This document shows positions 30,406-41,808 of a stretch of DNA of 64,000 nucleotides, piece by piece (the stretch's first letter is position 1; each line of letters opens with the position of its first letter). Origin of the DNA: Escherichia phage vB_EcoM_Lh1B; the sequence record OK428535.1; one strand, 5' to 3'. The notes beneath the pieces were generated by a model, which was not told the DNA's origin, did not search any database, and worked only from the letters and a program-made list of their open reading frames with translations. The translations under genes were made by a program, and so were the position numbers.

Positions 30406-32643
30406 ATGAAAACACCAGTCGAACTCATGTCAAGCGTTGCTGACCGTGAGGTGAATATCACTGGCGTATCTGGGGCACGTGCCTCAATGGTGGGTGGACA
30501 TATGAAGTCGGCGGTACCACTGGACAATCCAGATCCGACTATCCATTTTACCGGCGCTGATGTGAACTACCACGATTATTGTTTTAACGATATCGTGGAA
30601 GACAGTGGTACCGTGTGCAGTTACACAACCAAAGAAGGTGTTACTCGTGCAGCTGTTTTTGCACGCTATGGTCGTGAAGGGGATCACGATCCGCTCCAAC
30701 ATGTTATCTTCTTCACGCGCGCAGATTTAACCAACCAGCGCAAAGTGATGATTGATGTAATCGATATCAAGTATTACACCAACCACGATAACATTTTCTC
30801 GTCTAAGAAAGAGGCTACTGGGAAACTTCAGGCGTTGCTGCGCGGGCAGACTCAGCACCTGGAAAAAGATGAAATGCTTACCGTGCTGCCGGCACAGAAA
30901 GACGGTGAGTTTGTCGATGGGGTCAACCTGCACACCGTGACAATGTCGCACCCGGACATTATCGAGGACTCGTACACCATCTCCGAAACTGCAGCGAAGG
31001 CGATGCACGCTTATGGTTTGCGTGCAATTGACTTTACCCTCCGTGACGACGAGTACCTGCTTGACACGTATGGGACAACGGGTATTGATGGCGTTCGTCG
31101 ACCACAGTACCTACCCAATAAAGGACAGGCAATTCGTGATGATGGGTTGGTTATTGCCGCGCGCCGTTTCGATAAGCTATGGGCAGCCATTGACTCGCAC
31201 GTAGGTGAAACACAACATATCTCTCCGCACTTCGACCGTTGTGAGTATGTTGATGCTGACCCTGAGCATTACAAAGCGCGTCAGGCTGGCGACTTTGAAA
31301 AGATGGAACGTACTGGTTCTCGTGTCGTTGATATTCAGGTATGGCGGGACGAAACCAAATGCGATCGTGGTGTTAACAATATCGCATGTACCGAAGAGAA
31401 CAAACGCGAGTTAGATCACTACGCGAACGCTTTGAAACGTTTTTACAATGATATCGTGCGGTTCTATTTTGCGATGTCCAAGGACAAGAATATTGTCTGG
31501 TCACCGAAAGCGTTTGAGATTCTTGACAAGGCGTTCTGTTCTGAGACGTATGAAGTCTATAACGACTTCCGTGAAGAGATTGGTCGTGAATACGATGAAG
31601 CCATGCGTAAAGGTGAGTATAACCGTTCTGCTGATAAGAACGTGTTGAACAAACTGGCGCAGCCGGTTCAGCGTGGTCTCTGGGACCCAATTGGTAGCTA
31701 CACGATACGCATCGTGGTACGTTATCCAATCCCAGTTACCGTCTCATCGAAAATCACCGACCGTTCAGGTACAAAAGGTATCGTGGGCGCAGTGCGGCCT
31801 GATGAAGAAATGCCGATTAACGAGTTCGGAGAACGTGTGCATGTCATTCGTTCCATGAACGCCGTAATTCGTCGTTCGACTTATGCTGCGCTGTTCCACA
31901 TGTATTGGTCTGCTGCATCCGAGCAGTTGAAGATGCGGTTGAAACCATTACTTGCTGCCAACCAGGTTGATGAAGCCTGGGAAATCCTGATGGACTATAT
32001 CGATCGCTATAACCCACGCTGGACATTCTATCTCAATGCCAGTCACCCAGATACTGAGTCACGTCTGGAACTCTTTAAAGAGATTTACGACTTCACGATT
32101 CGTATCTGGCTTCCCCACGAATTGAATGCCACCCAGGTAGAAATCTGCCGTGCTCTAGGCGAGTATGCACCACGCAAGTCTAAGCTACTGATTACTAACT
32201 ATCAGGGTGAGAAAGAGTGGACGAAGAACCAGTTCTACGTCGGCATGGTAGAGACTCTGCGCCTGGATAAAACCGGTCGTGAGTTCTCCAGTATCTCATC
32301 GATGTACACGAACTATTTGGGTTGTATTGATGCATCCAACCAAGGACGTGGTTCATATCCGATTAACCTGAAAGGGTTGAAGTGGGGTGGTCCTTCCGAG
32401 CAGCGTCTTACCGACGGCTTTGGTCCGGGCAACTTCCCCGAAACTCATGACCGCGCTAATAACCCTGCGGTACACCGTGCGATCGTAACGGGGTTGTATA
32501 ACTCGCCAACACCAACCAATCCGGGGGTGCTGGTCGATCGTAAGAAACTGCCAATGGGAGATTCGCAGATTGACAGGATGATACGTAACATCCATCGCTG
32601 TGAAGGTTTTGAATTAGTGCGTCCAATTCGGGAGGATAAATAA
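30406..32643 (+). CDS. multisubunit RNA polymerase beta-like subunit (C-terminal portion)
   Basis: KITDRSGTKGIVGAVRPDEEMPINEFGERVHVI...SMNAV parallels beta [33 protein letters not shown]...SRMNIG. Confidence 0.7.
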   Translation: MKTPVELMSSVADREVNITGVSGARASMVGGHMKSAVPLDNPDPTIHFTGADVNYHDYCFNDIVEDSGTVCSYTTKEGVTRAAVFARYGREGDHDPLQHVIFFTRADLTNQRKVMIDVIDIKYYTNHDNIFSSKKEATGKLQALLRGQTQHLEKDEMLTVLPAQKDGEFVDGVNLHTVTMSHPDIIEDSYTISETAAKAMHAYGLRAIDFTLRDDEYLLDTYGTTGIDGVRRPQYLPNKGQAIRDDGLVIAARRFDKLWAAIDSHVGETQHISPHFDRCEYVDADPEHYKARQAGDFEKMERTGSRVVDIQVWRDETKCDRGVNNIACTEENKRELDHYANALKRFYNDIVRFYFAMSKDKNIVWSPKAFEILDKAFCSETYEVYNDFREEIGREYDEAMRKGEYNRSADKNVLNKLAQPVQRGLWDPIGSYTIRIVVRYPIPVTVSSKITDRSGTKGIVGAVRPDEEMPINEFGERVHVIRSMNAVIRRSTYAALFHMYWSAASEQLKMRLKPLLAANQVDEAWEILMDYIDRYNPRWTFYLNASHPDTESRLELFKEIYDFTIRIWLPHELNATQVEICRALGEYAPRKSKLLITNYQGEKEWTKNQFYVGMVETLRLDKTGREFSSISSMYTNYLGCIDASNQGRGSYPINLKGLKWGGPSEQRLTDGFGPGNFPETHDRANNPAVHRAIVTGLYNSPTPTNPGVLVDRKKLPMGDSQIDRMIRNIHRCEGFELVRPIREDK

Positions 32644-34748
32644 TGGCGGGTCGTTCTGTACACGTGCGTGATTTGCGTATGCTTAACTCTGATCAGGTGT
32701 GGAAACTACGCGGGCGTTATTACGTGACATTCGACGATGGTAAGTCGTTGGAAATGTCTAGTCGCCACATCAAACTCAGCTGGCCGTATTGGGGTGTGTC
32801 GCGTCTGTATCCGCAGGTGCCCACTCCATCGACCATGGCGTATCGTCCAGGTCAGGTAGCAACAGATGACCTGCATCTGGACTTTATGTCGGAAGCAGCG
32901 GTACTGGCCCGTAAAGCAGGTGTCGACCTTGCTGAAACGCGTTATATCCTGAGTCAACATGTCTACGCCGATGCGTTCAACATGACAGTGAAGAACTTGC
33001 TGTCGTATTGTACGACAATCGACTTTGACACGATGATGGAGATCTACGACCACCCGAACTTCGAACTCATCCGTCAGTGGGAAGTGCAATACCCTACTGG
33101 CTACGATGAAGATGGTCAGGATATGGTTGAAGAAGCGTACAAGCTTATCGAGAAAATCTTCAAAGACCCTGCGCTACGGTATAACCCGGTCGTGATGTCG
33201 GTACTGGACGGTACTGTGAAGATGAACCAGGTACTGCAAGCCTTCGTGCGTGGTAAAACGTCAGAAATTGACTCACGTGTATACACCAATCAGGTGTGGG
33301 AAGGCTTCTTTACCGGAATGCACTCGGTTATTTCGCGTTTGAAAGAATCCGGTGCAACATCACGTTCCCACTTGTACAACACTGACAAGATTGCCGAAGC
33401 AGAATACGCCTCACGTAAACTGCAGCTGGCAGCAAACGTACTGATGTATTTCACGTACGACGACTGCGGTACAACTCACGCACACCGCTACACGTTTAAG
33501 GATACGCAGCTGGATGAGCGTGCCTATAAAGCGATGGTGGGGATGCGTTATCGTTTAGAAGGCGATAATGGTCCGTGGTTGAGATTTGAGAAAGGTGGAT
33601 ACGCAGACCTGGTTGGTAAACCGCTGGTCTTCCGTAGTGCAATGACCTGTAAAGAGATGGCGAATCAGTCCATCTGTGCGACCTGCATGGGGGATTTGAT
33701 TTATAACCTCTCTGAAGGCACGTCACCGGGTCACCTGGCATCCACTTCCATCTCAGAAAAGGGTACACAGGGAATTCTCTCCACCAAGCACCTTGACTTC
33801 TTGCGTTATCTGCTCAACCTGGTACTCACGCCGAGAATGCGTGAGTACATGACCGAATACAAACATAACTCTCTGAAAGGGTTGTGCTTGCTACCAAAAC
33901 CACAGCGTGGTAATTGGTCAGAATACGAGTTGGTCGTTACCGACAAAGTTTATTCGGAGCTGAGCCAGATTGCGTATCATGAAGATCTCGATGCAATCGA
34001 TGAAACAGCATTGCCGGAAATCACCGACTTGACATTCCAGCGTCGTTTAGAAGATGGGCAAATCATCGCTGCAGATTCTATCGATGTGCGAATGGGTGTT
34101 TGTGGGAACTTCTCTAAACCGTTCTTGCATTACTTCTTGAAACAACGTGCGAACATTCGTATCGAGAAGAAGACGGTTCAGATTCCTTTGAAAGGATGGA
34201 ACCCGAAACACCCGGTACTGGTCTACACCAACCGTTCTGAATCGATGGCAGAATTCGTGGCAGGGTTAGAAACCAAGCTACGTTCAATCGCAGCCGATAA
34301 GAACGAAGACATTGTGGAAATCATCAACACAGCCTCGACTGTGAAGTTGAACAAGAAACAAGGTCGTGTGAAACCGGTAACGTTGGTTGAAATGGGTGGT
34401 GCTACAGAGAAACAGTGTACTTATGCGTTGATGGATACGTTTAAGTACATCCAGCGTAAGCTGAGCGGTATACCGATGACGCACATTGCGATTATGTTGG
34501 CGATATCTCGTGTAGAGTCACCAACCAATCCGTTCCCGGCAGTAGGATTTGACAGTGAGGATTCTACTAATGCCACCGGGAAACGGTTTGTCGATCACAA
34601 CACGCTCATTAGTTTGCGCTCGGCAATTCCGATGTTGTTGTTTGAAGGACAGCAGGGGAATATCGATCGCGTTGGTTTTTATACCGAGTACAAAATCCCG
34701 GCATCGTTGTACGATGACCTAGGAGCCGCTGTGGTAATTGAGTTGTAA
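32643..34748 (+). CDS. multisubunit RNA polymerase beta-prime-like subunit (C-terminal portion)
   Basis: CATCMGDL (cf. CAHCYGRDL) and trigger-loop-like TSISEKGTQGILSTKH (cf. QSIGEPGTQLTMRTFH); TAATG coupling to beta-like gene. Confidence 0.65.
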   Translation: MAGRSVHVRDLRMLNSDQVWKLRGRYYVTFDDGKSLEMSSRHIKLSWPYWGVSRLYPQVPTPSTMAYRPGQVATDDLHLDFMSEAAVLARKAGVDLAETRYILSQHVYADAFNMTVKNLLSYCTTIDFDTMMEIYDHPNFELIRQWEVQYPTGYDEDGQDMVEEAYKLIEKIFKDPALRYNPVVMSVLDGTVKMNQVLQAFVRGKTSEIDSRVYTNQVWEGFFTGMHSVISRLKESGATSRSHLYNTDKIAEAEYASRKLQLAANVLMYFTYDDCGTTHAHRYTFKDTQLDERAYKAMVGMRYRLEGDNGPWLRFEKGGYADLVGKPLVFRSAMTCKEMANQSICATCMGDLIYNLSEGTSPGHLASTSISEKGTQGILSTKHLDFLRYLLNLVLTPRMREYMTEYKHNSLKGLCLLPKPQRGNWSEYELVVTDKVYSELSQIAYHEDLDAIDETALPEITDLTFQRRLEDGQIIAADSIDVRMGVCGNFSKPFLHYFLKQRANIRIEKKTVQIPLKGWNPKHPVLVYTNRSESMAEFVAGLETKLRSIAADKNEDIVEIINTASTVKLNKKQGRVKPVTLVEMGGATEKQCTYALMDTFKYIQRKLSGIPMTHIAIMLAISRVESPTNPFPAVGFDSEDSTNATGKRFVDHNTLISLRSAIPMLLFEGQQGNIDRVGFYTEYKIPASLYDDLGAAVVIEL

Positions 34749-34751
34749 ACC

Positions 34752-34778
34752 GAGGGGCCTTGCGCCCCTCTTTTTTTG
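34752..34778 (+). terminator. rho-independent terminator
   Basis: Hairpin GAGGGGC-CTTG-CGCCCCTC then TTTTTTT. Confidence 0.7.
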
Positions 34779-34794
34779 GGCGAAGAGGGGCAGC

Positions 34795-37539
34795 ATGGTA
34801 GAAATTCAAATGACTTACACGAGTATGGGGGTACGGGTTGAAGTCCCCATCCGCCAGGCTGAAAGGGCCATACTCGCGTGGGCCGAAGAGAATATGCACG
34901 CCCCAAAGATGGGCAAGCAACATGGACGAATAACCACGGAACGCGGCGATGCGTACTACGCCCACATTCCGTCTTTAAGGACATTCATTTTCCATAAAGT
35001 GTTCGCTGAGAAGATTAAACATATCCTCCAACGGGCAGCAATTGAATACGCTTTTCAGTACAAGCTTACAGAGCACCATCCTGAACGAGGAACACCTTAC
35101 AGCTGTACATTTGATAACTACGGTTTCTCGATGGTAGAAAGCGATCCGGAGTCGCGGTTCTATTATCAGAACGAGGTTGTGGATGCAGCATCCGATCCAA
35201 ACCGACCACAGACAATCTTTGCCATTCAGACAGGGAGAGGAAAATGCTGTGCTCATGGTACGCGTGTGCGTGTACCGGGTGGTTGGAAGAACATTGAGGA
35301 TATACAGCTAGGTGATTACGTTACGGGGCGTGACGGAAAACCAGCAATGGTCTCTGGAGTGTTCCCACAGGGTGTGGTTGACCTGTATCAGGTGACGTTT
35401 TGGGATGGTAGGAGTGTTGACGTATGTGGCGAGCACTTGTGGCAAAGCTACTACGTTAATACCACCGAGAATCGTCGCTGGGGTGTACGTGATACCCTAG
35501 AGATGAAACGTTTAATTTCGATGCCTAATCCACGGGTATACATCCCATTACCAGAACCAGAGGAAATGCCAGCTAAGGATTTTGTCATTCATCCGTATTT
35601 ACTCGGTATCCTCTTGGGTGATGGCTCCCTATCGATGCCTGGTGTTTTATACACCAAAGGCGATGTGGAGATTCGTGACCGTGTTGCTGAGGTCATGCCC
35701 GCTGGACATGCAATCCATGATTCATCGTACAGCGATGGGATAACGAAGTGCATCTCTTGTCCCGGCGGTGTTAACCTTGTCCGCAGAGAGCTTGAGCGGT
35801 TAGGGTTAATTGGCTGCAGGTCTTGGGAAAAGTTCATACCTGGAGATTACTTCGAAACGTCCATCGAACAACGGTGGGAGTTGTTGCGTGGCTTGATGGA
35901 TACTGACGGTACTGTGGATAAGGATGGTGGTACGCCTTCTTTCTGTTCCACCAGTAAAGAATTGGCTTTAGGTGTTCAGGAACTTGTGCGGTCTTTAGGA
36001 GGGATTGCAACACTACGCGAGAAACGTCCGTTCTTCACACACAACGGCGAACGTCGTGAAGGTCGTTTGGCTTATAACGTCTCCATCCGCCACAAAACAC
36101 CATCGAAACTGTTCCACCTTCCAAGGAAGAAAGAACTGTGTCGTGATAACGGACAATACACCGATATACTGAAACTCCGTGTTAAGTCTATCGAACCCAT
36201 TGGTCGTGATCTTGCCACGTGTATTCGTGTCGAGAACGACGATGCGTTGTTTGTGGTGGACAAGTGGATCGTTACGCACAACACCAAGACCTGTATGAAG
36301 TCGATGGTTAAACGGGGAACCCGTACCGCATTGATTCACCGTCCGTCATACGTTCCCAAATGGCTGTTTGACGTCTGTGATGATGAAACAGGACTTCGTA
36401 TACTTCGTGACGAGGTGTTAGTTTGTACAGGCGTACAGGCGATTTACGACGCACTGGAGATGGGTAAGTCGGGAGAGCTAGATAGACGCGGTATTAAGGT
36501 AATAATCCTCCCCACGGTCTCTCTACAGCGTTTCCTGAAGGAGTACATTAACACTGCTGCGACTAACCCTGTGGACCTGGATACGTTTTATGATGTTCTG
36601 GGTGTGGGTCTGGTGGCGATGGATGAGGTGCACGAGCATTTTCACCTCGTTTACATGGCTGGTATAATGTTGAACCCGCCGGCATCGATAGAGATGTCTG
36701 CAACTCTTAAACCGGGTAGCAGTAAAGCCTTTATCGCGGAGCGGTATTTAGAACGTTTCCCAATGGAGTACCGAATCAGTATTCCAATCATTCCGGTGGT
36801 TGACGTGAAAGCGTTGTACTATCGACTGGATGATAAGAAGTTCGCGTGGTGGGCGTCGAAGATGACGCCGTATAACCACAAACTCTTCGAAGGGAAGCTG
36901 ATTAAAGAGAACTTGCATTTAGAATACGCGAACATGATCTGGGATGTGGTTGAGAAATCGTTCCTTAAACGGTATCAACCCGGCCAGAAGTGTTTGCTGC
37001 TATTTGCCACGGTTGCAATGTGTGAGTTCTTTACCGAGTATGTGAAAGATAAGTTATCGCGTGACCCTGTATTCCATCCACTGATGGTGGCGAAATATAA
37101 TGCAGGCGATTCGTATGACGACTTTATCCAAGCAGACTTCTCTATCTCCACACCGGGGAAAGCGGGGACTGCGGTCGATAAACCTGGGTTGGTGCACATG
37201 TACATTTCAACCCCGGTAGAAGACCAGCAACTGAACGAACAGATGGCCGGTCGTCCACGTAAGATTCTCCACAACGAGTGGGGTGAAATAGACCCAACGG
37301 TGTGGTTATTCCATGCGTATAACGTACCGAAGCATTGCAATTACTTGAATGCCCGCCAGAAATCACTCAAGGATGTCGTATTGTCGTTCCGTATCGCGAC
37401 ATCCCCCTACGTTGTAAGGAAATCACATGCTCACTCCGCCGCGTCCAGCAGAGCCACTGCCGCCCTACATCGGAATGACTTTAGCAAGTTTTCTCGAAAA
37501 CATTCTAAAGGCGTATCCCGGCGTAGAAGACGTCGCTAA
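34795..37539 (+). CDS. DExH-box SF2 helicase interrupted by an intein
   Basis: Extein motifs: I AIQTGRGK|T (split by intein), II VAMDEVHEH, III SAT, VI QMAGRPRK; start at ATG 34795 after GAGGGG; 3' end uncertain (overlaps ORF 37427). Confidence 0.75.
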   Translation: MVEIQMTYTSMGVRVEVPIRQAERAILAWAEENMHAPKMGKQHGRITTERGDAYYAHIPSLRTFIFHKVFAEKIKHILQRAAIEYAFQYKLTEHHPERGTPYSCTFDNYGFSMVESDPESRFYYQNEVVDAASDPNRPQTIFAIQTGRGKCCAHGTRVRVPGGWKNIEDIQLGDYVTGRDGKPAMVSGVFPQGVVDLYQVTFWDGRSVDVCGEHLWQSYYVNTTENRRWGVRDTLEMKRLISMPNPRVYIPLPEPEEMPAKDFVIHPYLLGILLGDGSLSMPGVLYTKGDVEIRDRVAEVMPAGHAIHDSSYSDGITKCISCPGGVNLVRRELERLGLIGCRSWEKFIPGDYFETSIEQRWELLRGLMDTDGTVDKDGGTPSFCSTSKELALGVQELVRSLGGIATLREKRPFFTHNGERREGRLAYNVSIRHKTPSKLFHLPRKKELCRDNGQYTDILKLRVKSIEPIGRDLATCIRVENDDALFVVDKWIVTHNTKTCMKSMVKRGTRTALIHRPSYVPKWLFDVCDDETGLRILRDEVLVCTGVQAIYDALEMGKSGELDRRGIKVIILPTVSLQRFLKEYINTAATNPVDLDTFYDVLGVGLVAMDEVHEHFHLVYMAGIMLNPPASIEMSATLKPGSSKAFIAERYLERFPMEYRISIPIIPVVDVKALYYRLDDKKFAWWASKMTPYNHKLFEGKLIKENLHLEYANMIWDVVEKSFLKRYQPGQKCLLLFATVAMCEFFTEYVKDKLSRDPVFHPLMVAKYNAGDSYDDFIQADFSISTPGKAGTAVDKPGLVHMYISTPVEDQQLNEQMAGRPRKILHNEWGEIDPTVWLFHAYNVPKHCNYLNARQKSLKDVVLSFRIATSPYVVRKSHAHSAASSRATAALHRNDFSKFSRKHSKGVSRRRRRR
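35245..36282 (+). mobile_element. intein with LAGLIDADG homing-endonuclease domain, inserted in helicase P-loop
   Basis: Starts with Cys directly after the Walker-A lysine (CCAHGTRVRV...), ends ...VVDKWIVTHN followed by Thr; two LAGLIDADG motifs (YLLGILLGDGS, ELLRGLMDTDGTV); 346 aa. Confidence 0.75.
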
Positions 37540-37810
37540 GAAACTCTGCACCGACGCCACTATCAACCAGGCGTTTCATTACTACATGGTCACTGAACAT
37601 TACAGCGGCCTGTTCCTTAACCAACGCGGGTTGACGTATTACGTCACCCGCACGTCAAGTATCCGTAACACTTCGTCGTACGAGTTATATACGTACGTGT
37701 TGTGGAATGAGAACCCGGCCGGTAGTGTCGATCAGAATCCAAAGATGGCTTATCGTCTTTACTCTGAAAAATGGCACGATTGGGTGACTGTTCCACACGA
37801 TGCAAGTTAA
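37427..37810 (+). CDS. hypothetical protein
   Basis: 127-aa ORF, AAGGAAA upstream; overlaps end of helicase ORF by ~110 nt. Confidence 0.4.
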   Translation: MLTPPRPAEPLPPYIGMTLASFLENILKAYPGVEDVAKKLCTDATINQAFHYYMVTEHYSGLFLNQRGLTYYVTRTSSIRNTSSYELYTYVLWNENPAGSVDQNPKMAYRLYSEKWHDWVTVPHDAS

Positions 37811-37870
37811 TCACGTTTTGGGTGTATATTGTTTATACCCCCAACCCCTAATTGCAAAAGGATTATTACG

Positions 37871-38491
37871 ATGAGTCGTCGCAAAAAGAAACCCGCTTAT
37901 AACCCACGTAAAGACGCACGCGATTTCGTCAAGGCGATGATGCAGTCTGTGTTGAAAAAACAAGCTGTGTTTATCGAAAGTACCGAATTCCTGTCAGGCA
38001 AAATTGATCGGGAGCGTGAAGTAACTGAAGCCATTGCGCACGAAGAGCTGAAAGCTTTCACGTTGAAAGCGCTGGATGAAGCACAAGCGGCATTCCTCGG
38101 CATGTGCCAACAAGGCAAAGAGCTGTTCGGTAAACTGATTGTTGAGGCAGATGCTAAGGCTGTGCCGGTGTTTGACATGCTGAACGATAACAGCAAAACC
38201 TGGAAAGAGGTTAAAGACCAGTTCCACGTCGACCACACCGAGCTGTCTTTGATTGACCAGCGGGCGAATATGCTCGCGATGGATATCCAGGGCACCAGTA
38301 TCGAAATCTTCTCTACGTATAACGCGAAAGTGAAGTTCGTGAAGCAGGCGCTGAATAACGGGCATACCGTGGAACAAGCCGAAGTTCTGTTGGCCGAAGC
38401 TCTGGCTAATAATTCGAAAGAACTCCCTAAAAACGCCATCGTCGATCACAACGACGTTGTAGTAGAAACCGAGGAAGCGGCACATGTCTGA
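37871..38491 (+). CDS. hypothetical protein
   Basis: ATG at 37871 with AAAGGA upstream (MSRRKKKPAY...). Confidence 0.5.
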   Translation: MSRRKKKPAYNPRKDARDFVKAMMQSVLKKQAVFIESTEFLSGKIDREREVTEAIAHEELKAFTLKALDEAQAAFLGMCQQGKELFGKLIVEADAKAVPVFDMLNDNSKTWKEVKDQFHVDHTELSLIDQRANMLAMDIQGTSIEIFSTYNAKVKFVKQALNNGHTVEQAEVLLAEALANNSKELPKNAIVDHNDVVVETEEAAHV

Positions 38492-40454
38492 GATCCAAGA
38501 TCAGCGTCCGGGTAATGCCCGTCNCCCTAATCCCGATCAGCCAGCCCCTGTGGCGGCTGCTACCCAACAAGAGATGATTCTTCCGACCGTGCCTGATGAC
38601 GCGAATCCGGATGCAATCATCATGNCTATTAAACANNNNNACCCCNATTTTNNTTTTGCCCGTGCAGAAGAAGTTTATCACCAACATTATCATCAGCCGG
38701 AGCCTAAGCTCGAGCGTCCGACGTTTGTAGAAGAAGCTTTGCCCGAACCTGCTGCACCGGTACAGCCTGTATCCCAGACCTTCTCTGAACAGGTGCATGA
38801 GCATATTCATCACACCCCAGAACCGGNGGNAGAGAAANCGCCNGNGGNANAACCNNCNCCCCNNCNAAAAACNCCGGNNGGGGGNGNCCCNNNNAACCCG
38901 GGGNNAAAAAAAAAGNAAAACNCNNCNCCNAAGGTTCCGGAANAANAACAGGNCCNNGNGANTNACTTNGGTAANACCCATTTAGCTGAAACCGCCGAAA
39001 TGGGTGAAGATGAAGCTGATCGTATCCTGACACAGTCGAAGATGTTGATTGGTCTGAAACAAGACCCTAACATCATTGCAGACTCTCTGCAAAAGTTCCT
39101 CGGTAACATTAAACGTTCACCGAAAGACGGTCGGCTGCTGTTCGAAAGCCCTGAACAACAACAGGTTTACGACGACATCTATCGTGCTTTGAACATGACA
39201 CCGCCACGTCTACAGGACGGCGTACCGGCATTCGCTGGTGCACTGGACCGTGGTGACACCGCTTGGGAACAGCGTGTGATGTTGCCGGACGGTAAGGCAT
39301 CTGGTGCTATTGCACCGCGTGACAATATGCACACTGGCGCGCTGGCTGCTTTGCGTCGTGTACGTAAGTCGGGTATTCCGAACATGGTTTGGCTGCCGGC
39401 CACAGGTATCTACGTGNGCTTCCNCGCACCACATGAACGCGACCTTTGTGACTTCGACATGCGTCTAACACTGGAAACTGCGACCATCGGTATGCAGACC
39501 TACGGATTGATGCTGTCGTCGTCTTCTGGCGTGTACATGCGTCACATGGTTGAATTCGCACTTCAGTTTGTTACCGAAGCAACCATCGATTGTGCAGGTA
39601 ACGATCTGCGTACGGTGCTGTTGGATACCATTGATCTGGCTGACTACTGGCTGGTTATTCTGGGTCCGTTGCAGGCGAAGTGGCCGTCTGGTATTCCATG
39701 GACGCTGATGTGTGGCGAAGACGGTTGCACTCAGCAGGAAGATGTGAAGCTGAATATCGCACGTTGTATCCGTTTTGGTTCCGGTCTGTTTAGCGACCTG
39801 CAGAAANAACNGTGGGNACGTCAGCGCGGTACTGAGCGTCCAGTGATTTCTATTGCTGAACAGCGCGAATATATCGCGGCGCATCAGGTTGACCCATCCT
39901 CGGTATTTGAATACCACGACGTGCGTGTTGAATTTGGCCGTTCTACCCTGGGTAGCTTCTTTGACTCCACCGAGAAGTGGATTGAAGACGTTAACGCGTC
40001 AACTACGGCAGCGCTGTCTGAATTTGCTACCGAGCGTGAACGTGAATCCCATATGCGTTTAACTGCGGAAGCCCGTCGCTTAACGCGCTACGCTCACATG
40101 GTGAAATCTATCACTGTTAATGAGCAACGTGAAGTAAACGGTGAAATGCAGGTTATCCCACAAACTGAAACCGACACAGCGAAAATCGTTGAGATGCTGG
40201 AAGAGCTGTCTTCCGACCGTATCTACGTTGGTCAGTTTGAAAACGCGATTGCTGAATACAACGAACGTACACGTTTAGCGGTATTCGGTTACATGGGTAA
40301 ACGCTGCCCGGCGTGCGGTAAAACACACGGCGAGAAAGACGGTCTGTATCGCGGTATTGTTACCATCTCACCGGACAGGGTTTTTTTCGTGCTCTCTCGA
40401 GTGGTGTCCGAGATTCAGAAATTCTTGCTGGATCAATACGCCGATATTGGCTAG
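38484..40454 (+). CDS. hypothetical protein; Pro/Glu/Lys-rich low-complexity N-region, C-terminal CPACG zinc-ribbon-like motif
   Basis: 656-aa ORF; frame through 38521..38990 is provisional because of many N calls. Confidence 0.45.
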   Translation: MSEIQDQRPGNARXPNPDQPAPVAAATQQEMILPTVPDDANPDAIIMXIKXXXPXFXFARAEEVYHQHYHQPEPKLERPTFVEEALPEPAAPVQPVSQTFSEQVHEHIHHTPEPXXEKXXXXXXXPXXKXPXGXXXXNPGXKKKXNXXXKVPEXXQXXXXXXGXTHLAETAEMGEDEADRILTQSKMLIGLKQDPNIIADSLQKFLGNIKRSPKDGRLLFESPEQQQVYDDIYRALNMTPPRLQDGVPAFAGALDRGDTAWEQRVMLPDGKASGAIAPRDNMHTGALAALRRVRKSGIPNMVWLPATGIYVXFXAPHERDLCDFDMRLTLETATIGMQTYGLMLSSSSGVYMRHMVEFALQFVTEATIDCAGNDLRTVLLDTIDLADYWLVILGPLQAKWPSGIPWTLMCGEDGCTQQEDVKLNIARCIRFGSGLFSDLQKXXWXRQRGTERPVISIAEQREYIAAHQVDPSSVFEYHDVRVEFGRSTLGSFFDSTEKWIEDVNASTTAALSEFATERERESHMRLTAEARRLTRYAHMVKSITVNEQREVNGEMQVIPQTETDTAKIVEMLEELSSDRIYVGQFENAIAEYNERTRLAVFGYMGKRCPACGKTHGEKDGLYRGIVTISPDRVFFVLSRVVSEIQKFLLDQYADIG

Positions 40455-40498
40455 ACCAGGAAGACGTTCCGTCCGAGCAAATCATTACAACGCTCAAG

Positions 40499-40870
40499 AT
40501 GGATACCACCTCTCTCTTCAAGCAGCGTAGCACACGTCCTATTACGTATCAGGAAGCCCATAACGAGCTTCTGGAAGCGTATGACCGTACACTGGCTCTT
40601 AATACCGGCGACCATCAGGTAGGGTTGTCAGATTTTGAAAACCCGGTATACGGTAGTCTTTACGATATCTGGTACGCCACTTACTTACGTGAAGAGGTCG
40701 GTGAAAACTACCGGATGTCGATAGACGAGTTCCTCGACCGTCCCCNCTGGCAGATACTNCTNATGCNCGACAATGCCCGTCGCCCCAATGNGTTTTTCCC
40801 CAAANCCGGGGAATACGCGGCGGGTAAACGCGGGCAAAAGGAGCCGGATAAATATATGACGGGATATTAA
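40499..40870 (+). CDS. hypothetical protein
   Basis: 123-aa ORF, weak ribosome-binding site, contains N calls. Confidence 0.3.
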   Translation: MDTTSLFKQRSTRPITYQEAHNELLEAYDRTLALNTGDHQVGLSDFENPVYGSLYDIWYATYLREEVGENYRMSIDEFLDRPXWQIXXMXDNARRPNXFFPKXGEYAAGKRGQKEPDKYMTGY

Positions 40871-40879
40871 AANAAATTN

Positions 40880-40908
40880 GGGGNTTCGGCCCCGTTTTCT
40901 TTTTTTTA
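40880..40908 (+). terminator. rho-independent terminator
   Basis: Hairpin GGGGnTTCGGCCCC then T-run (contains N). Confidence 0.55.
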
Positions 40909-40950
40909 TTCGCCTTGGTATGAATGCCCTTTTCACTATGGAACAGAGCC

Positions 40951-41808
40951 ATGATTGATATTTATACCGACTATGCGGCTGTATTGACAGTCAACCGTCA
41001 CGAAGGTCGTGCAGCACCGATGCTAGATTTAGTGACGCTCGGTATGGATTACGGTTACGATGTGGCGTTATCCGATGTTTATAGCAACCCGTTGTCTGAC
41101 CCTGCGGACGAAACTGTTCGTCTGGAATCCATTATCGTGAAGGTAGCGGTTGGGTTAGGCAACCGCCTCGGTATCGGACTTAATCCACAAATCGTCTTCC
41201 AGAAACCGAAAGAAACCGTACGTATCCTTCACGGTGTGTTGGAAGCCTTCGAAGAGTTCGAAGACAGTGATGCCCTTTACGGGATTGTCTCCTCTGGTGA
41301 GACACCAGAGTATATCCTGGAGAACATGTGTCGTTATGTTTACGGTGACGAAAACCTGCACTTCGAAGACCTGATTACTGTTGTCAGCCCACGCGTGCTT
41401 ACCGTGATGGAAAACTTCTTAGCGGCAGAGTCGTTGGAAAGCCAGAAAAGAAATGGCGATGATGAGCGCCAAGAGCGTATCGTCACTTACTTGCGGTTGT
41501 TCCCTGAGAACCCGTCAGCGTTTGTCTTTATGAATCTGCCTGCTGAACCAGACTTAACAGTGGTGCAACAATCGTTAGAATTTCGCGTAGAAGACATTAG
41601 CGAAATTGATTTGCTGACGATGTATGCGGTAGGTTTATCGATTATTCCTCATGCGGAGTTTGACGGGGCTTACGGTGACTTAGAAAAGAACCTTGCCTTG
41701 TTGAACGTCGACAACGTCCCGCCTGGAGAAATCTTGCGGAAAGGATTGGAAGCGTTGAAAGTCATATACGCTAGTGGGGTCGCGGAGGTAGATGATGAAC
41801 AAGATTGA
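40951..41808 (+). CDS. hypothetical acidic protein
   Basis: ORF; start ambiguous between 40924 and 40951. Confidence 0.45.
   Translation: MIDIYTDYAAVLTVNRHEGRAAPMLDLVTLGMDYGYDVALSDVYSNPLSDPADETVRLESIIVKVAVGLGNRLGIGLNPQIVFQKPKETVRILHGVLEAFEEFEDSDALYGIVSSGETPEYILENMCRYVYGDENLHFEDLITVVSPRVLTVMENFLAAESLESQKRNGDDERQERIVTYLRLFPENPSAFVFMNLPAEPDLTVVQQSLEFRVEDISEIDLLTMYAVGLSIIPHAEFDGAYGDLEKNLALLNVDNVPPGEILRKGLEALKVIYASGVAEVDDEQD

Follow-up and report, generated by a model that had tools for sequence, protein, structure and literature searches.

Escherichia phage vB_EcoM_Lh1B (sequence record OK428535.1), of which a stretch of 64,000 nucleotides (nt), referred to as the window, was analysed, is an SPN3US-like jumbo phage of the genus Seoulvirus and is collinear with Escherichia phage vB_EcoM_EC001 at identical coordinates. 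A helicase gene in this window is interrupted by an insert that is quite likely a mobile bifunctional intein, in which a HINT splicing domain and a LAGLIDADG endonuclease would lie together in the Walker A motif of a superfamily 2 (SF2) helicase, splice by the rarer class 3 route and spread by homing. A megablast search with the gene retrieved 39 phage records, of which four (EC001, SPLA3, SPLA5c, and JN03) cover it in full and about 30 match in two pieces that together span 1764 bases, 1038 fewer than the 2802-base query. Such a comparison with intein-free alleles had been suggested, along with the intein itself, in an earlier reading of the letters alone (the sequence-only reading), and about 30 related phages indeed lack exactly these 1038 nt. 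The segment is therefore regarded as an optional insert and not as a domain of the helicase.

The insert consists of 346 codons in frame and without a stop, and it sits between the lysine and the threonine of helicase motif I (AIQTGRGK/T, the slash marking the insertion point), where intein-free alleles read GRGK/TKSCMK. The precursor protein reads PQTIFAIQTGRGK, then CCAHGTRVRVPGGW, and later FVVDKWIVTHN, then TKTCMKSMVK. The intein itself starts with CCAHGTRVRV (Cys1 codon 35245..35247) and ends with Asn346 (codon 36280..36282). The predicted spliced junction peptide is FAIQTGRGKTKTCM, and the intein-free form of the gene, as in gp36 of SPN3US, encodes 568 amino acids (aa). The coordinates, the length of 346 aa, the pair of LAGLIDADG motifs and the terminal VTHN named in the sequence-only reading proved exact when read codon by codon, and the proposed insertion between K and T of Walker A, with a Thr+1 that restores GRGKT, can be read directly from the sequence.

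A regular, non-splicing helicase domain, or an RNA-level intron with a free-standing endonuclease gene, has next to no chance of accounting for the segment. In a large protein collection, 86 of 114 orthologue clusters lack it precisely and 28 carry an insert at QTGRGK/T, so that the conserved non-intein domain named in advance as the refuting case is not found. Moreover, the segment splits the GK/T of the P-loop, is in frame without stops and contains all HINT blocks together with the intein fold. A search of 34500..37800 against Rfam, with E values up to 1, returned no family matches, group I and group II introns included. Both readings, the non-splicing domain and the RNA-level intron, were ruled out by the presence and absence data, the HINT fold and the lack of an Rfam match.

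The features of the locus, in window coordinates, are listed below.

34795..37539 (+): helicase precursor gene, 914 aa plus stop; ATG start as annotated in EC001, JN03, SPLA3, and SPN3US
34795..35244 (+): N-extein, 150 aa, ending in the first part of motif I, AIQTGRGK (35221..35244)
35233..36291 (+): flanking tracts apparently carried along with the intein, GGG AGA GGA AAA upstream and ACC AAG ACC downstream
35245..36282 (+): intein, 346 aa (Cys1 to Asn346), delimited by the 1038 nt missing in about 30 relatives and supported by Pfam and the AlphaFold model
35245..35250 (+): intein residues 1-2, Cys-Cys (TGC TGT), a variable position; Ala-Leu in SPLA3 and JN03
35407..35448 (+): splicing block B, GRSVDVCGEHLWQS, with Cys61 (B7), His64 (B10, 35434..35436) and Trp66 (B12, 35440..35442; the W of the WCT triplet)
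35572..36147 (+): LAGLIDADG endonuclease domain, approximately intein residues 110-301, from the secondary structure of the model, fold matches and Pfam
35599..35625 (+): LAGLIDADG motif 1, LLGILLGDG, with predicted catalytic Asp126, from sequence; Asp in 48/48 relatives
35881..35910 (+): LAGLIDADG motif 2, LLRGLMDTDG, with predicted catalytic Asp221, from sequence; Asp in 47/48 relatives
36208..36258 (+): splicing block F, DLATCIRVENDDALFVV, with Cys326 (F4, 36220..36222), the C of WCT and proposed first nucleophile
36262..36282 (+): splicing block G, KWIVTHN, with Thr344 (G5, the T of WCT), His345 and Asn346, each in 48/48
36283..37539 (+): C-extein, 418 aa plus stop, whose Thr+1 (36283..36285) completes GRGKT
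36622..36633 (+): helicase motif II, DEVH, in the C-extein, from sequence
within 36694..36708 (+): helicase motif III, SAT, in the C-extein, from sequence
37240..37263 (+): helicase motif VI, QMAGRPRK, in the C-extein, from sequence

Architecture of the insert and its host helicase

An AlphaFold2 model of the intein, built with four extein residues on each side and an alignment of 48 sequences, reached a mean predicted local distance difference test score (pLDDT) of 92.5 and a predicted template modelling score of 0.92. In a fold search against the PDB, the best match of the whole chain was PI-SceI (E = 1e-16, template modelling score (TM) 0.72), and the Tli and Pho VMA inteins were also found. 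The endonuclease part of the model matched I-DmoI (E ~1e-4, target-normalised TM 0.5-0.6), and the HINT lobes matched the DnaB-1 inteins of M. chimaera and M. smegmatis as well as gp41-1 (target-normalised TM ~0.8). These whole-chain and lobe matches indicate a two-domain intein of PI-SceI-type architecture. A Pfam scan of the intein gave LAGLIDADG_3 (E = 1.3e-10) and Hom_end (E = 1.2e-4), both above cut-off. That the Pfam HINT models (Hom_end_hint with E = 4e-7, and Hint_2) fell just under their curated cut-offs speaks against the assignment, although the HINT fold was confirmed by the fold search. With a precisely bounded optional insert and all intein blocks and the intein fold found, the earlier proposal of an intein is upheld. 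Base composition gives no foreign signal, the GC fraction being 0.492 in the intein vs. 0.487 in the whole window, and no second copy of the intein was found in the window by tblastn.

The spliced protein matches only PHROG 16, “DNA helicase” (E = 1.5e-57). After splicing, motif I would read QTGRGKT, and the SF2 motifs I, II, III, and VI were all located. Pfam gave no significant match to the spliced helicase (ResIII E = 0.088, DEAD 0.21), and a search of PDB sequences with it returned only a chance match to an antibody. An AlphaFold model of the 568-aa form (pLDDT 84.5) was compared by Foldseek and matched XPB/Ssl2 of TFIIH and archaeal XPB best, followed by Rad54, HsdR, and other SF2 proteins (E ~1e-11 to 1e-10). 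The DExH helicase host postulated in the sequence-only reading is thus corroborated by the PHROG 16 match, the SF2 motifs and the predicted fold, which, as judged from the model, resembles that of XPB. In the eukaryotic and archaeal transcription and repair factor TFIIH, XPB/Ssl2 serves as DNA translocase, and a role of the phage helicase in transcription rather than in replication is conceivable. The helicase gene directly follows the split RNA polymerase beta/beta' genes (30406..37539, +), an arrangement that also occurs in Kwan, Rebecca (gp251), and Erwinia phage RAY (gp250). The exteins of Rebecca and the window share 27% identity (E = 7e-38). RAY gp250 belongs to the core genes of nucleus-forming phages, and its product localises inside the phage nucleus (PMC10299810). 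By homology to RAY gp250, there is some independent support for a helicase that is important to the phage. The earlier suggestion that a P-loop insertion marks the helicase as essential did not hold in that form, as the insertion alone is no proof and the independent support comes through this homology.

Homologous intein-bearing genes carry diverse labels in sequence records. SPLA3 (OR413581.1, 2058..4802) and SPLA5c list the helicase that contains the intein as “terminase large subunit”; other labels are “DarB-like antirestriction,” “RNA polymerase beta subunit,” “DNA gyrase subunit A,” and “DNA helicase/terminase.” A terminase host, as annotated in SPLA3 and SPLA5c, was rejected: the exteins match only PHROG 16 and SF2 folds, and terminase PHROGs match the intein alone. 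These PHROGs (19299, 36964, and 15) were built from intein-containing terminases, and consequently the SPLA3 and SPLA5c label reflects the intein instead of the helicase that hosts it.

The longest open reading frame (ORF) over the locus runs from TTG at 34738 to 37539 (+), and the related records all annotate the ATG at 34795. The following gene, 37427..37810 (+), which encodes a hypothetical protein of 127 aa, shares its first 113 nt with the 3' end of the helicase gene (37427..37539) but is read in a different frame. The helicase tail encoded there is predicted to be disordered (spliced residues 533-568, pLDDT <50), with RRRRRR at its end. An overlap at the 3' end of the helicase gene is also annotated in SPN3US and JN03 and, in a shorter form of 65 nt, in Kwan. 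The window and EC001 (MN445185.1) represent different strains, in which 347 of 10,802 positions differ over 30738..41539, 64 of them being N in the window, and there are no indels. The N bases of the window amount to 133 in 109 runs, all at ~38.5-64 kb, and appear as X in translations, for example in the ORF 38484..40454.

Splicing class and the variable first residue

Class 3 inteins are defined by a non-nucleophilic residue 1, a WCT triplet (Trp at B12, Cys at F4, and Thr at G5) and Thr or Ser, rarely Cys, at position +1, and in this class the non-nucleophilic residue 1 co-varies with the triplet (PMC2807308; PMC3196547; PMC5222942). In biochemical terms, the class is marked by a block F Cys that is indispensable as nucleophile and by a thiol-labile intermediate branched at block F (PMC2807308, PMC5222942). 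Three of 37 WCT inteins were found to begin with Ser1 or Cys1 (PMC2807308). The window allele carries the triplet as Trp66, Cys326, and Thr344 and is followed by Thr+1, its catalytic blocks reading VCGEHLW (B), LATCIRVE (F), and IVTHN (G). Conservation was counted in an alignment of the window intein with 47 full-length relatives from the protein collection (n = 48). His B10, Trp B12, Cys F4, Thr G5, His G6, and Asn G7 are each present in 48/48; the +1 residue is Thr in 40, Ser in eight and Cys in none; and residue 1 is Ala in 41/48. Residues typical of class 1 are limited to Thr at B7 in a single sequence, and Asp at F4 occurs in none. Inteins that combine WCT with Ser1 or Cys1 were reportedly placed in class 3 by Tori and Perler in 2011, and a Snf2 intein is said to have been the subject of work by Brace et al. 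in 2010. A phmmer search against PDB sequences aligned His64, Trp66, and Cys326 with His65, Trp67, and Cys118 of the M. smegmatis DnaB-1 intein (6BS8), which are experimentally defined class 3 catalytic residues (PMC5222942, PMC6195587).

The 28 orthologous helicase inteins begin with Ala (nine), Cys (seven), Val (six), Ser (five), or Met (one), so that residue 1 is non-nucleophilic (Ala, Val, or Met) in 16/28. All 28 contain HLW, and the block F Cys and the C-terminal His-Asn were present in every tail printed. This variation extends to isolated phages with complete deposited genomes, namely SPLA3, SPLA5c, JN03, Kwan, Rebecca, and RTH11. Residue 1 lacks a nucleophile in Kwan (Val1), Rebecca (Ala1), and RTH11 (Ala1). 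The inteins of SPLA3, SPLA5c, and JN03 are 98.3-99.4% identical in protein to that of the window, and those of SPLA3 and JN03 start with Ala-Leu. At the nucleotide level, the SPLA3 and window inteins differ at 9/1038 nt, and seven of the nine differences fall in the first three codons, which read Ala-Leu-Ala (GCT CTC GCG) in SPLA3 and Cys-Cys-Ala (TGC TGT GCT) in the window; the protein is otherwise unchanged. The inteins of EC001 and SPLA3 likewise differ in protein at residues 1 and 2 only. The clustering of these changes at 35245..35253 suggests a recombination breakpoint in the first intein codons rather than stepwise mutation. The first nine intein bases are TGCTGTGCT in the window and GCTCTCGCG in SPLA3. 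TGCTGTGCT and the upstream flank are common to the window and L007, a contig from Salmonella Derby (AAPGIT010000170.1, GCA_011094165.1, 1357 nt).

Since residue 1 varies naturally, the active site must be able to splice without a nucleophile at this position if the helicase matters to the phages that carry it. The WCT signature together with these natural variants leads to the conclusion that Cys326, and not Cys1, is probably the initiating nucleophile in the window allele, Cys1 being dispensable. The ends assigned in the sequence-only reading, Cys1 and His-Asn, are indeed present as residues, and the class 1 chemistry implied by the emphasis on Cys1 is made improbable by the WCT triplet and by Ala1 in alleles that are 98-99% identical.

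In the canonical class 1 alternative, Cys1 would undergo an N-to-S acyl shift, Thr+1 would attack the linear thioester and Asn346 would cyclise, Cys326 having a supporting function in the usual role of the F4 Asp. This is considered unlikely. It would fit the Cys-Cys beginning shared by the window allele, EC001, and the Salmonella Derby contig, as well as the presence of Cys in 7/28 and Ser in 5/28 orthologue inteins at residue 1; the closest solved HINT domains by sequence include the class 1 intein gp41-1, and class 1 inteins with Cys at F4 have been reported (PMC3196547). However, it is difficult to reconcile with Ala1 in the SPLA3 and JN03 inteins, nor do the orthologues in Kwan, Rebecca, and RTH11 offer a residue-1 nucleophile, and these must splice with the same active site if the helicase is needed. 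The 48/48 conservation of WCT, with Thr at B7 in only 1/48 and Asp at F4 in 0/48, also argues against class 1, as does the restriction of the +1 residue to Thr or Ser, with Cys never occurring, which matches class 3 (PMC2807308).

The assignment to class 3 has its own difficulties. The window allele departs from the class definition by having Cys1 at the position where a non-nucleophilic residue is required, and Cys1 leaves the first step of class 1 chemically possible. In addition, gp41-1 matches about as well as the class 3 DnaB inteins among PDB sequences; overall similarity cannot decide the class, which leaves the WCT residues and the variation of residue 1 to do so. The WCT residues by themselves are insufficient, as grafting WCT onto gp41-1 gave no working class 3 intein (PMC7664689).

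In the class 3 model of the window intein, the gene would be translated into a precursor of 914 aa whose ATP-binding loop is split, as shown by the reading frame, and which would be inactive as an ATPase by analogy with other P-loop inteins. The intein would then excise and the exteins would join, yielding the 568-aa helicase in which GRGKT is restored; the intact catalytic residues and the viability of phages that carry the element point to such splicing. Class 3 chemistry appears most likely from the sequence signature and the natural variants. Cys326, assisted by His64 and Trp66, would attack the peptide bond at Lys(-1) and form a thioester-branched intermediate, the N-extein would pass to the side chain of Thr+1, Asn346 would cyclise, and an O-to-N shift would generate the peptide bond, with Cys1 remaining dispensable throughout.

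Endonuclease domain and probable footprints of homing

The two helices of a two-motif LAGLIDADG enzyme, with the acidic residues Asp126 and Asp221, are present in the window intein, and an endonuclease fold is seen in the high-confidence model. In comparison with JN03, the endonuclease region shows nine synonymous changes and one non-synonymous change, with a ratio of non-synonymous to synonymous rates (dN/dS) of 0.03; in the comparison with an allele of 76% identity, dN amounts to 0.285 and dS is saturated. The endonuclease region is under purifying selection.

Several comparisons strongly suggest recent homing of the intein. Between the window and EC001, the inteins differ at 0/1038 nt and the exteins at 40/1707 (N-extein 13/450, C-extein 27/1257), that is, by 2.3%. 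At the rate of the exteins, about 24 differences would be expected within the intein (Poisson P ~3e-11). In comparison with the intein-free Salmonella phage 1252, the exteins differ at 12/1707 nt, and 9 of these 12 differences are located within 21 nt straddling the insertion point, where 1252 reads GGT CGT GGG AAG / ACG AAA TCG. More generally, the six intein-bearing alleles compared (window, SPLA3, JN03, Kwan, RTH11, and Rebecca) have AAA before and ACC after the intein, and 99%-identical intein-free alleles have AAG/ACG. The intein-free site of 1252 and SPFM is CAGACAGGTCGTGGGAAG/ACGAAATCGTGTATG and that of SPN3US is GGAGCCGGGAAA/TCTAAGAGC, and the flanks of the window phage joined without the intein would read GGGAGAGGAAAA/ACCAAGACC. 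A smaller cluster of flank changes at the junction is found in the pair Rebecca and RAY. The flank changes resemble short co-conversion tracts (~20 nt) left by homing. SPLA3 and JN03 have, upstream, a divergent tract that is ~210 nt long.

The site appears to have received more than one intein. Contig L007 carries a second intein allele at the same site and with the same Cys-Cys junction. Compared with the window, its splicing-domain parts show 1-7 differences per 60 nt and its endonuclease region shows 14-31 per 60 nt (about 25-50%), and the extein downstream diverges by 17%; this pattern looks like a modular exchange of the endonuclease domain. In the protein cluster P0137 (914 aa, 56 members), the exteins are 98% identical to those of the window and the intein is only 59% identical; this intein is of the Kwan type and starts with Val-Cys-Arg-Trp-Asp. 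As the intein-bearing lineages show different mosaics and different intein lineages, the sequences indicate that related inteins from a small population keep invading this one site.

The distribution of the insert is sporadic. In Agricanvirus it is present in 1/17 records, Erwinia phage Rebecca, which differs from RAY by exactly 1035 nt, and it is also found in Erwinia phage Kwan (Wellingtonvirus) and Xanthomonas phage RTH11. On a wider scale, tblastn identified relatives of the intein in 449 phage records, of which 240 are mycobacteriophages; phiKZ-like jumbo phages (EL, PhiPA3, PA1C, and 2050HW) and Stx2a-converting phages are included. Metagenomic relatives occupy the P-loops of PhoH, DnaB, and terminase. 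Each genome of Pseudomonas phage EL (AJ697969.1) and its relatives matches the intein at three separate places. One of these, in EL, lies in ORF039, “putative ATP-dependent DNA helicase,” as a 366-aa intein after AAGK; the family is thus represented several times in some jumbo phages. Many of the helicase homologues come from assemblies named “Salmonella enterica” with contigs of ~240 kb, which suggests phage carried in bacterial cultures.

It could still be that the intein splices while its endonuclease is dead or vestigial, the element being inherited vertically or moved by general recombination only. Many inteins carry decayed endonucleases, and the presence of an identical intein in diverged backgrounds weakens as evidence for homing if ordinary recombination during co-infection, without any endonuclease, could have produced it. 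This alternative is likewise unlikely, as the catalytic Asp residues and the LAGLIDADG helices have been kept across relatives that are only 30-40% identical, selection on the endonuclease region is purifying, the element occurs sporadically in three genera at one exact site, the converted tracts are very short and centred on the insertion point, and different intein lineages occupy the same site. In the homing model, the freed intein would cut the intein-free helicase alleles of co-infecting relatives in a site-specific manner, to judge from the footprints in the population, and repair from the intein-bearing copy would bring in the intein along with a few flanking bases. A further reservation applies to the explanation as a whole in that splicing, the splicing mechanism and DNA cleavage are all deduced from sequence. 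The “candidate active homing endonuclease” of the sequence-only reading has nevertheless gained indirect support from the conserved catalytic Asp residues, the purifying selection and the footprints that point to recent transfer.

Related elements and biological meaning

In its features, one of the closest known counterparts is the DnaB intein of Mycobacteriophage Bethlehem (MP-Be DnaB), the prototype of class 3 (PMC2807308). Like the window intein, it is a phage helicase intein of ~340 aa with a LAGLIDADG endonuclease, the WCT triplet, the block B His, a C-terminal His-Asn and Thr+1. It starts with Pro1, whereas the window allele starts with Cys-Cys, its host protein is a replicative helicase of the DnaB type rather than an SF2 DExH helicase with an XPB-like fold, and it resides in an actinobacteriophage and not in an enterobacterial jumbo phage. 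Class 3 inteins in a helicase P-loop, as proposed for the window, are also represented by M. smegmatis DnaBi1 (6BS8) and M. chimaera DnaB-1 (6RIX/6RIY). The HINT lobes of these DnaB-1 mini-inteins superpose on the window model (target-normalised TM ~0.78), and THN is aligned as well. In contrast to the window intein, they are bacterial, comprise ~140 aa, have lost the endonuclease and begin with Ala1.

The insertion point itself is that of the “classic” K/T P-loop inteins of phage TerL (mycobacteriophage TerL1-a), PhoH, and DnaB (PMC5050341). The PhoH, DnaB, and terminase inteins located after GxGK and before T or S are 30-45% identical to the window intein and belong to the same intein family, although their host proteins differ. 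Because the intein family is shared with terminases, the helicase of SPLA3 and SPLA5c came to be labelled as the large terminase subunit. PI-SceI (yeast VMA1) and the Tli and Pho VMA inteins, which matched the model best over the whole chain, share the combination of HINT and a two-motif LAGLIDADG endonuclease. They differ from the window intein in belonging to class 1 (Cys1, Cys+1), in being only 14-17% identical and ~100 aa larger, and in having an extra DNA-recognition region. A parallel of another kind is provided by PhiPA3 gp210 (PMC11620839, PMC12908238), where a mobile endonuclease likewise resides in the gene of a core nucleic-acid enzyme of a phiKZ-like jumbo phage and is polymorphic between related phages able to co-infect. 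There, the endonuclease is an HNH enzyme within a group I intron that is removed as RNA, whereas the window element is an intein and would be removed at the protein level. The intron endonuclease of PhiPA3 gp210 was shown to aid competition (PMC11620839, PMC12908238).

The kind of element, the insertion site, the class and the association with phages are all already established, and current knowledge of how inteins work stays unchanged. Literature searches on an SPN3US intein and on the homing of jumbo-phage helicase inteins yielded no description of a Seoulvirus helicase intein, and the word intein is absent from a 2025 review of nucleus-forming phages. The finding is of modest interest for its allelic series at residue 1, its unusually clean homing footprints and the systematic misannotation caused by the intein. 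The insert explains a length polymorphism of 346 aa in a conserved jumbo-phage helicase and accounts for automated calls of “terminase large subunit” or “DarB-like antirestriction” on this protein. Furthermore, near-identical inteins at one site with Cys, Ala, Val, Ser, or Met at residue 1 represent a natural allelic series for class 3 splicing, in which the EC001 and SPLA3 inteins offer a ready way to learn whether Cys1 is put to use once a class 3 intein has regained it. The footprints indicate that inteins are now moving among Salmonella and E. coli jumbo phages, which are candidates for therapy.

In mycobacterial DnaBi1, splicing is known to be controlled by redox state and zinc (PMC6195587). 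By analogy, the extra cysteines at residues 1-2, near Cys326, could render splicing, and hence activation of the helicase, sensitive to redox state or zinc. The phage is phiKZ-related, and relatives of such phages replicate inside a protein “nucleus.” A rather improbable scenario, drawn by analogy with the PhiPA3 intron endonuclease, is that the intein is not just a parasite and that its endonuclease acts as a weapon against intein-free co-infecting relatives and enters the phage nucleus within the imported helicase precursor, splicing taking place afterwards and perhaps being gated by redox state or metal. If true, protein splicing would become tied to the biology of import and competition in nucleus-forming phages.

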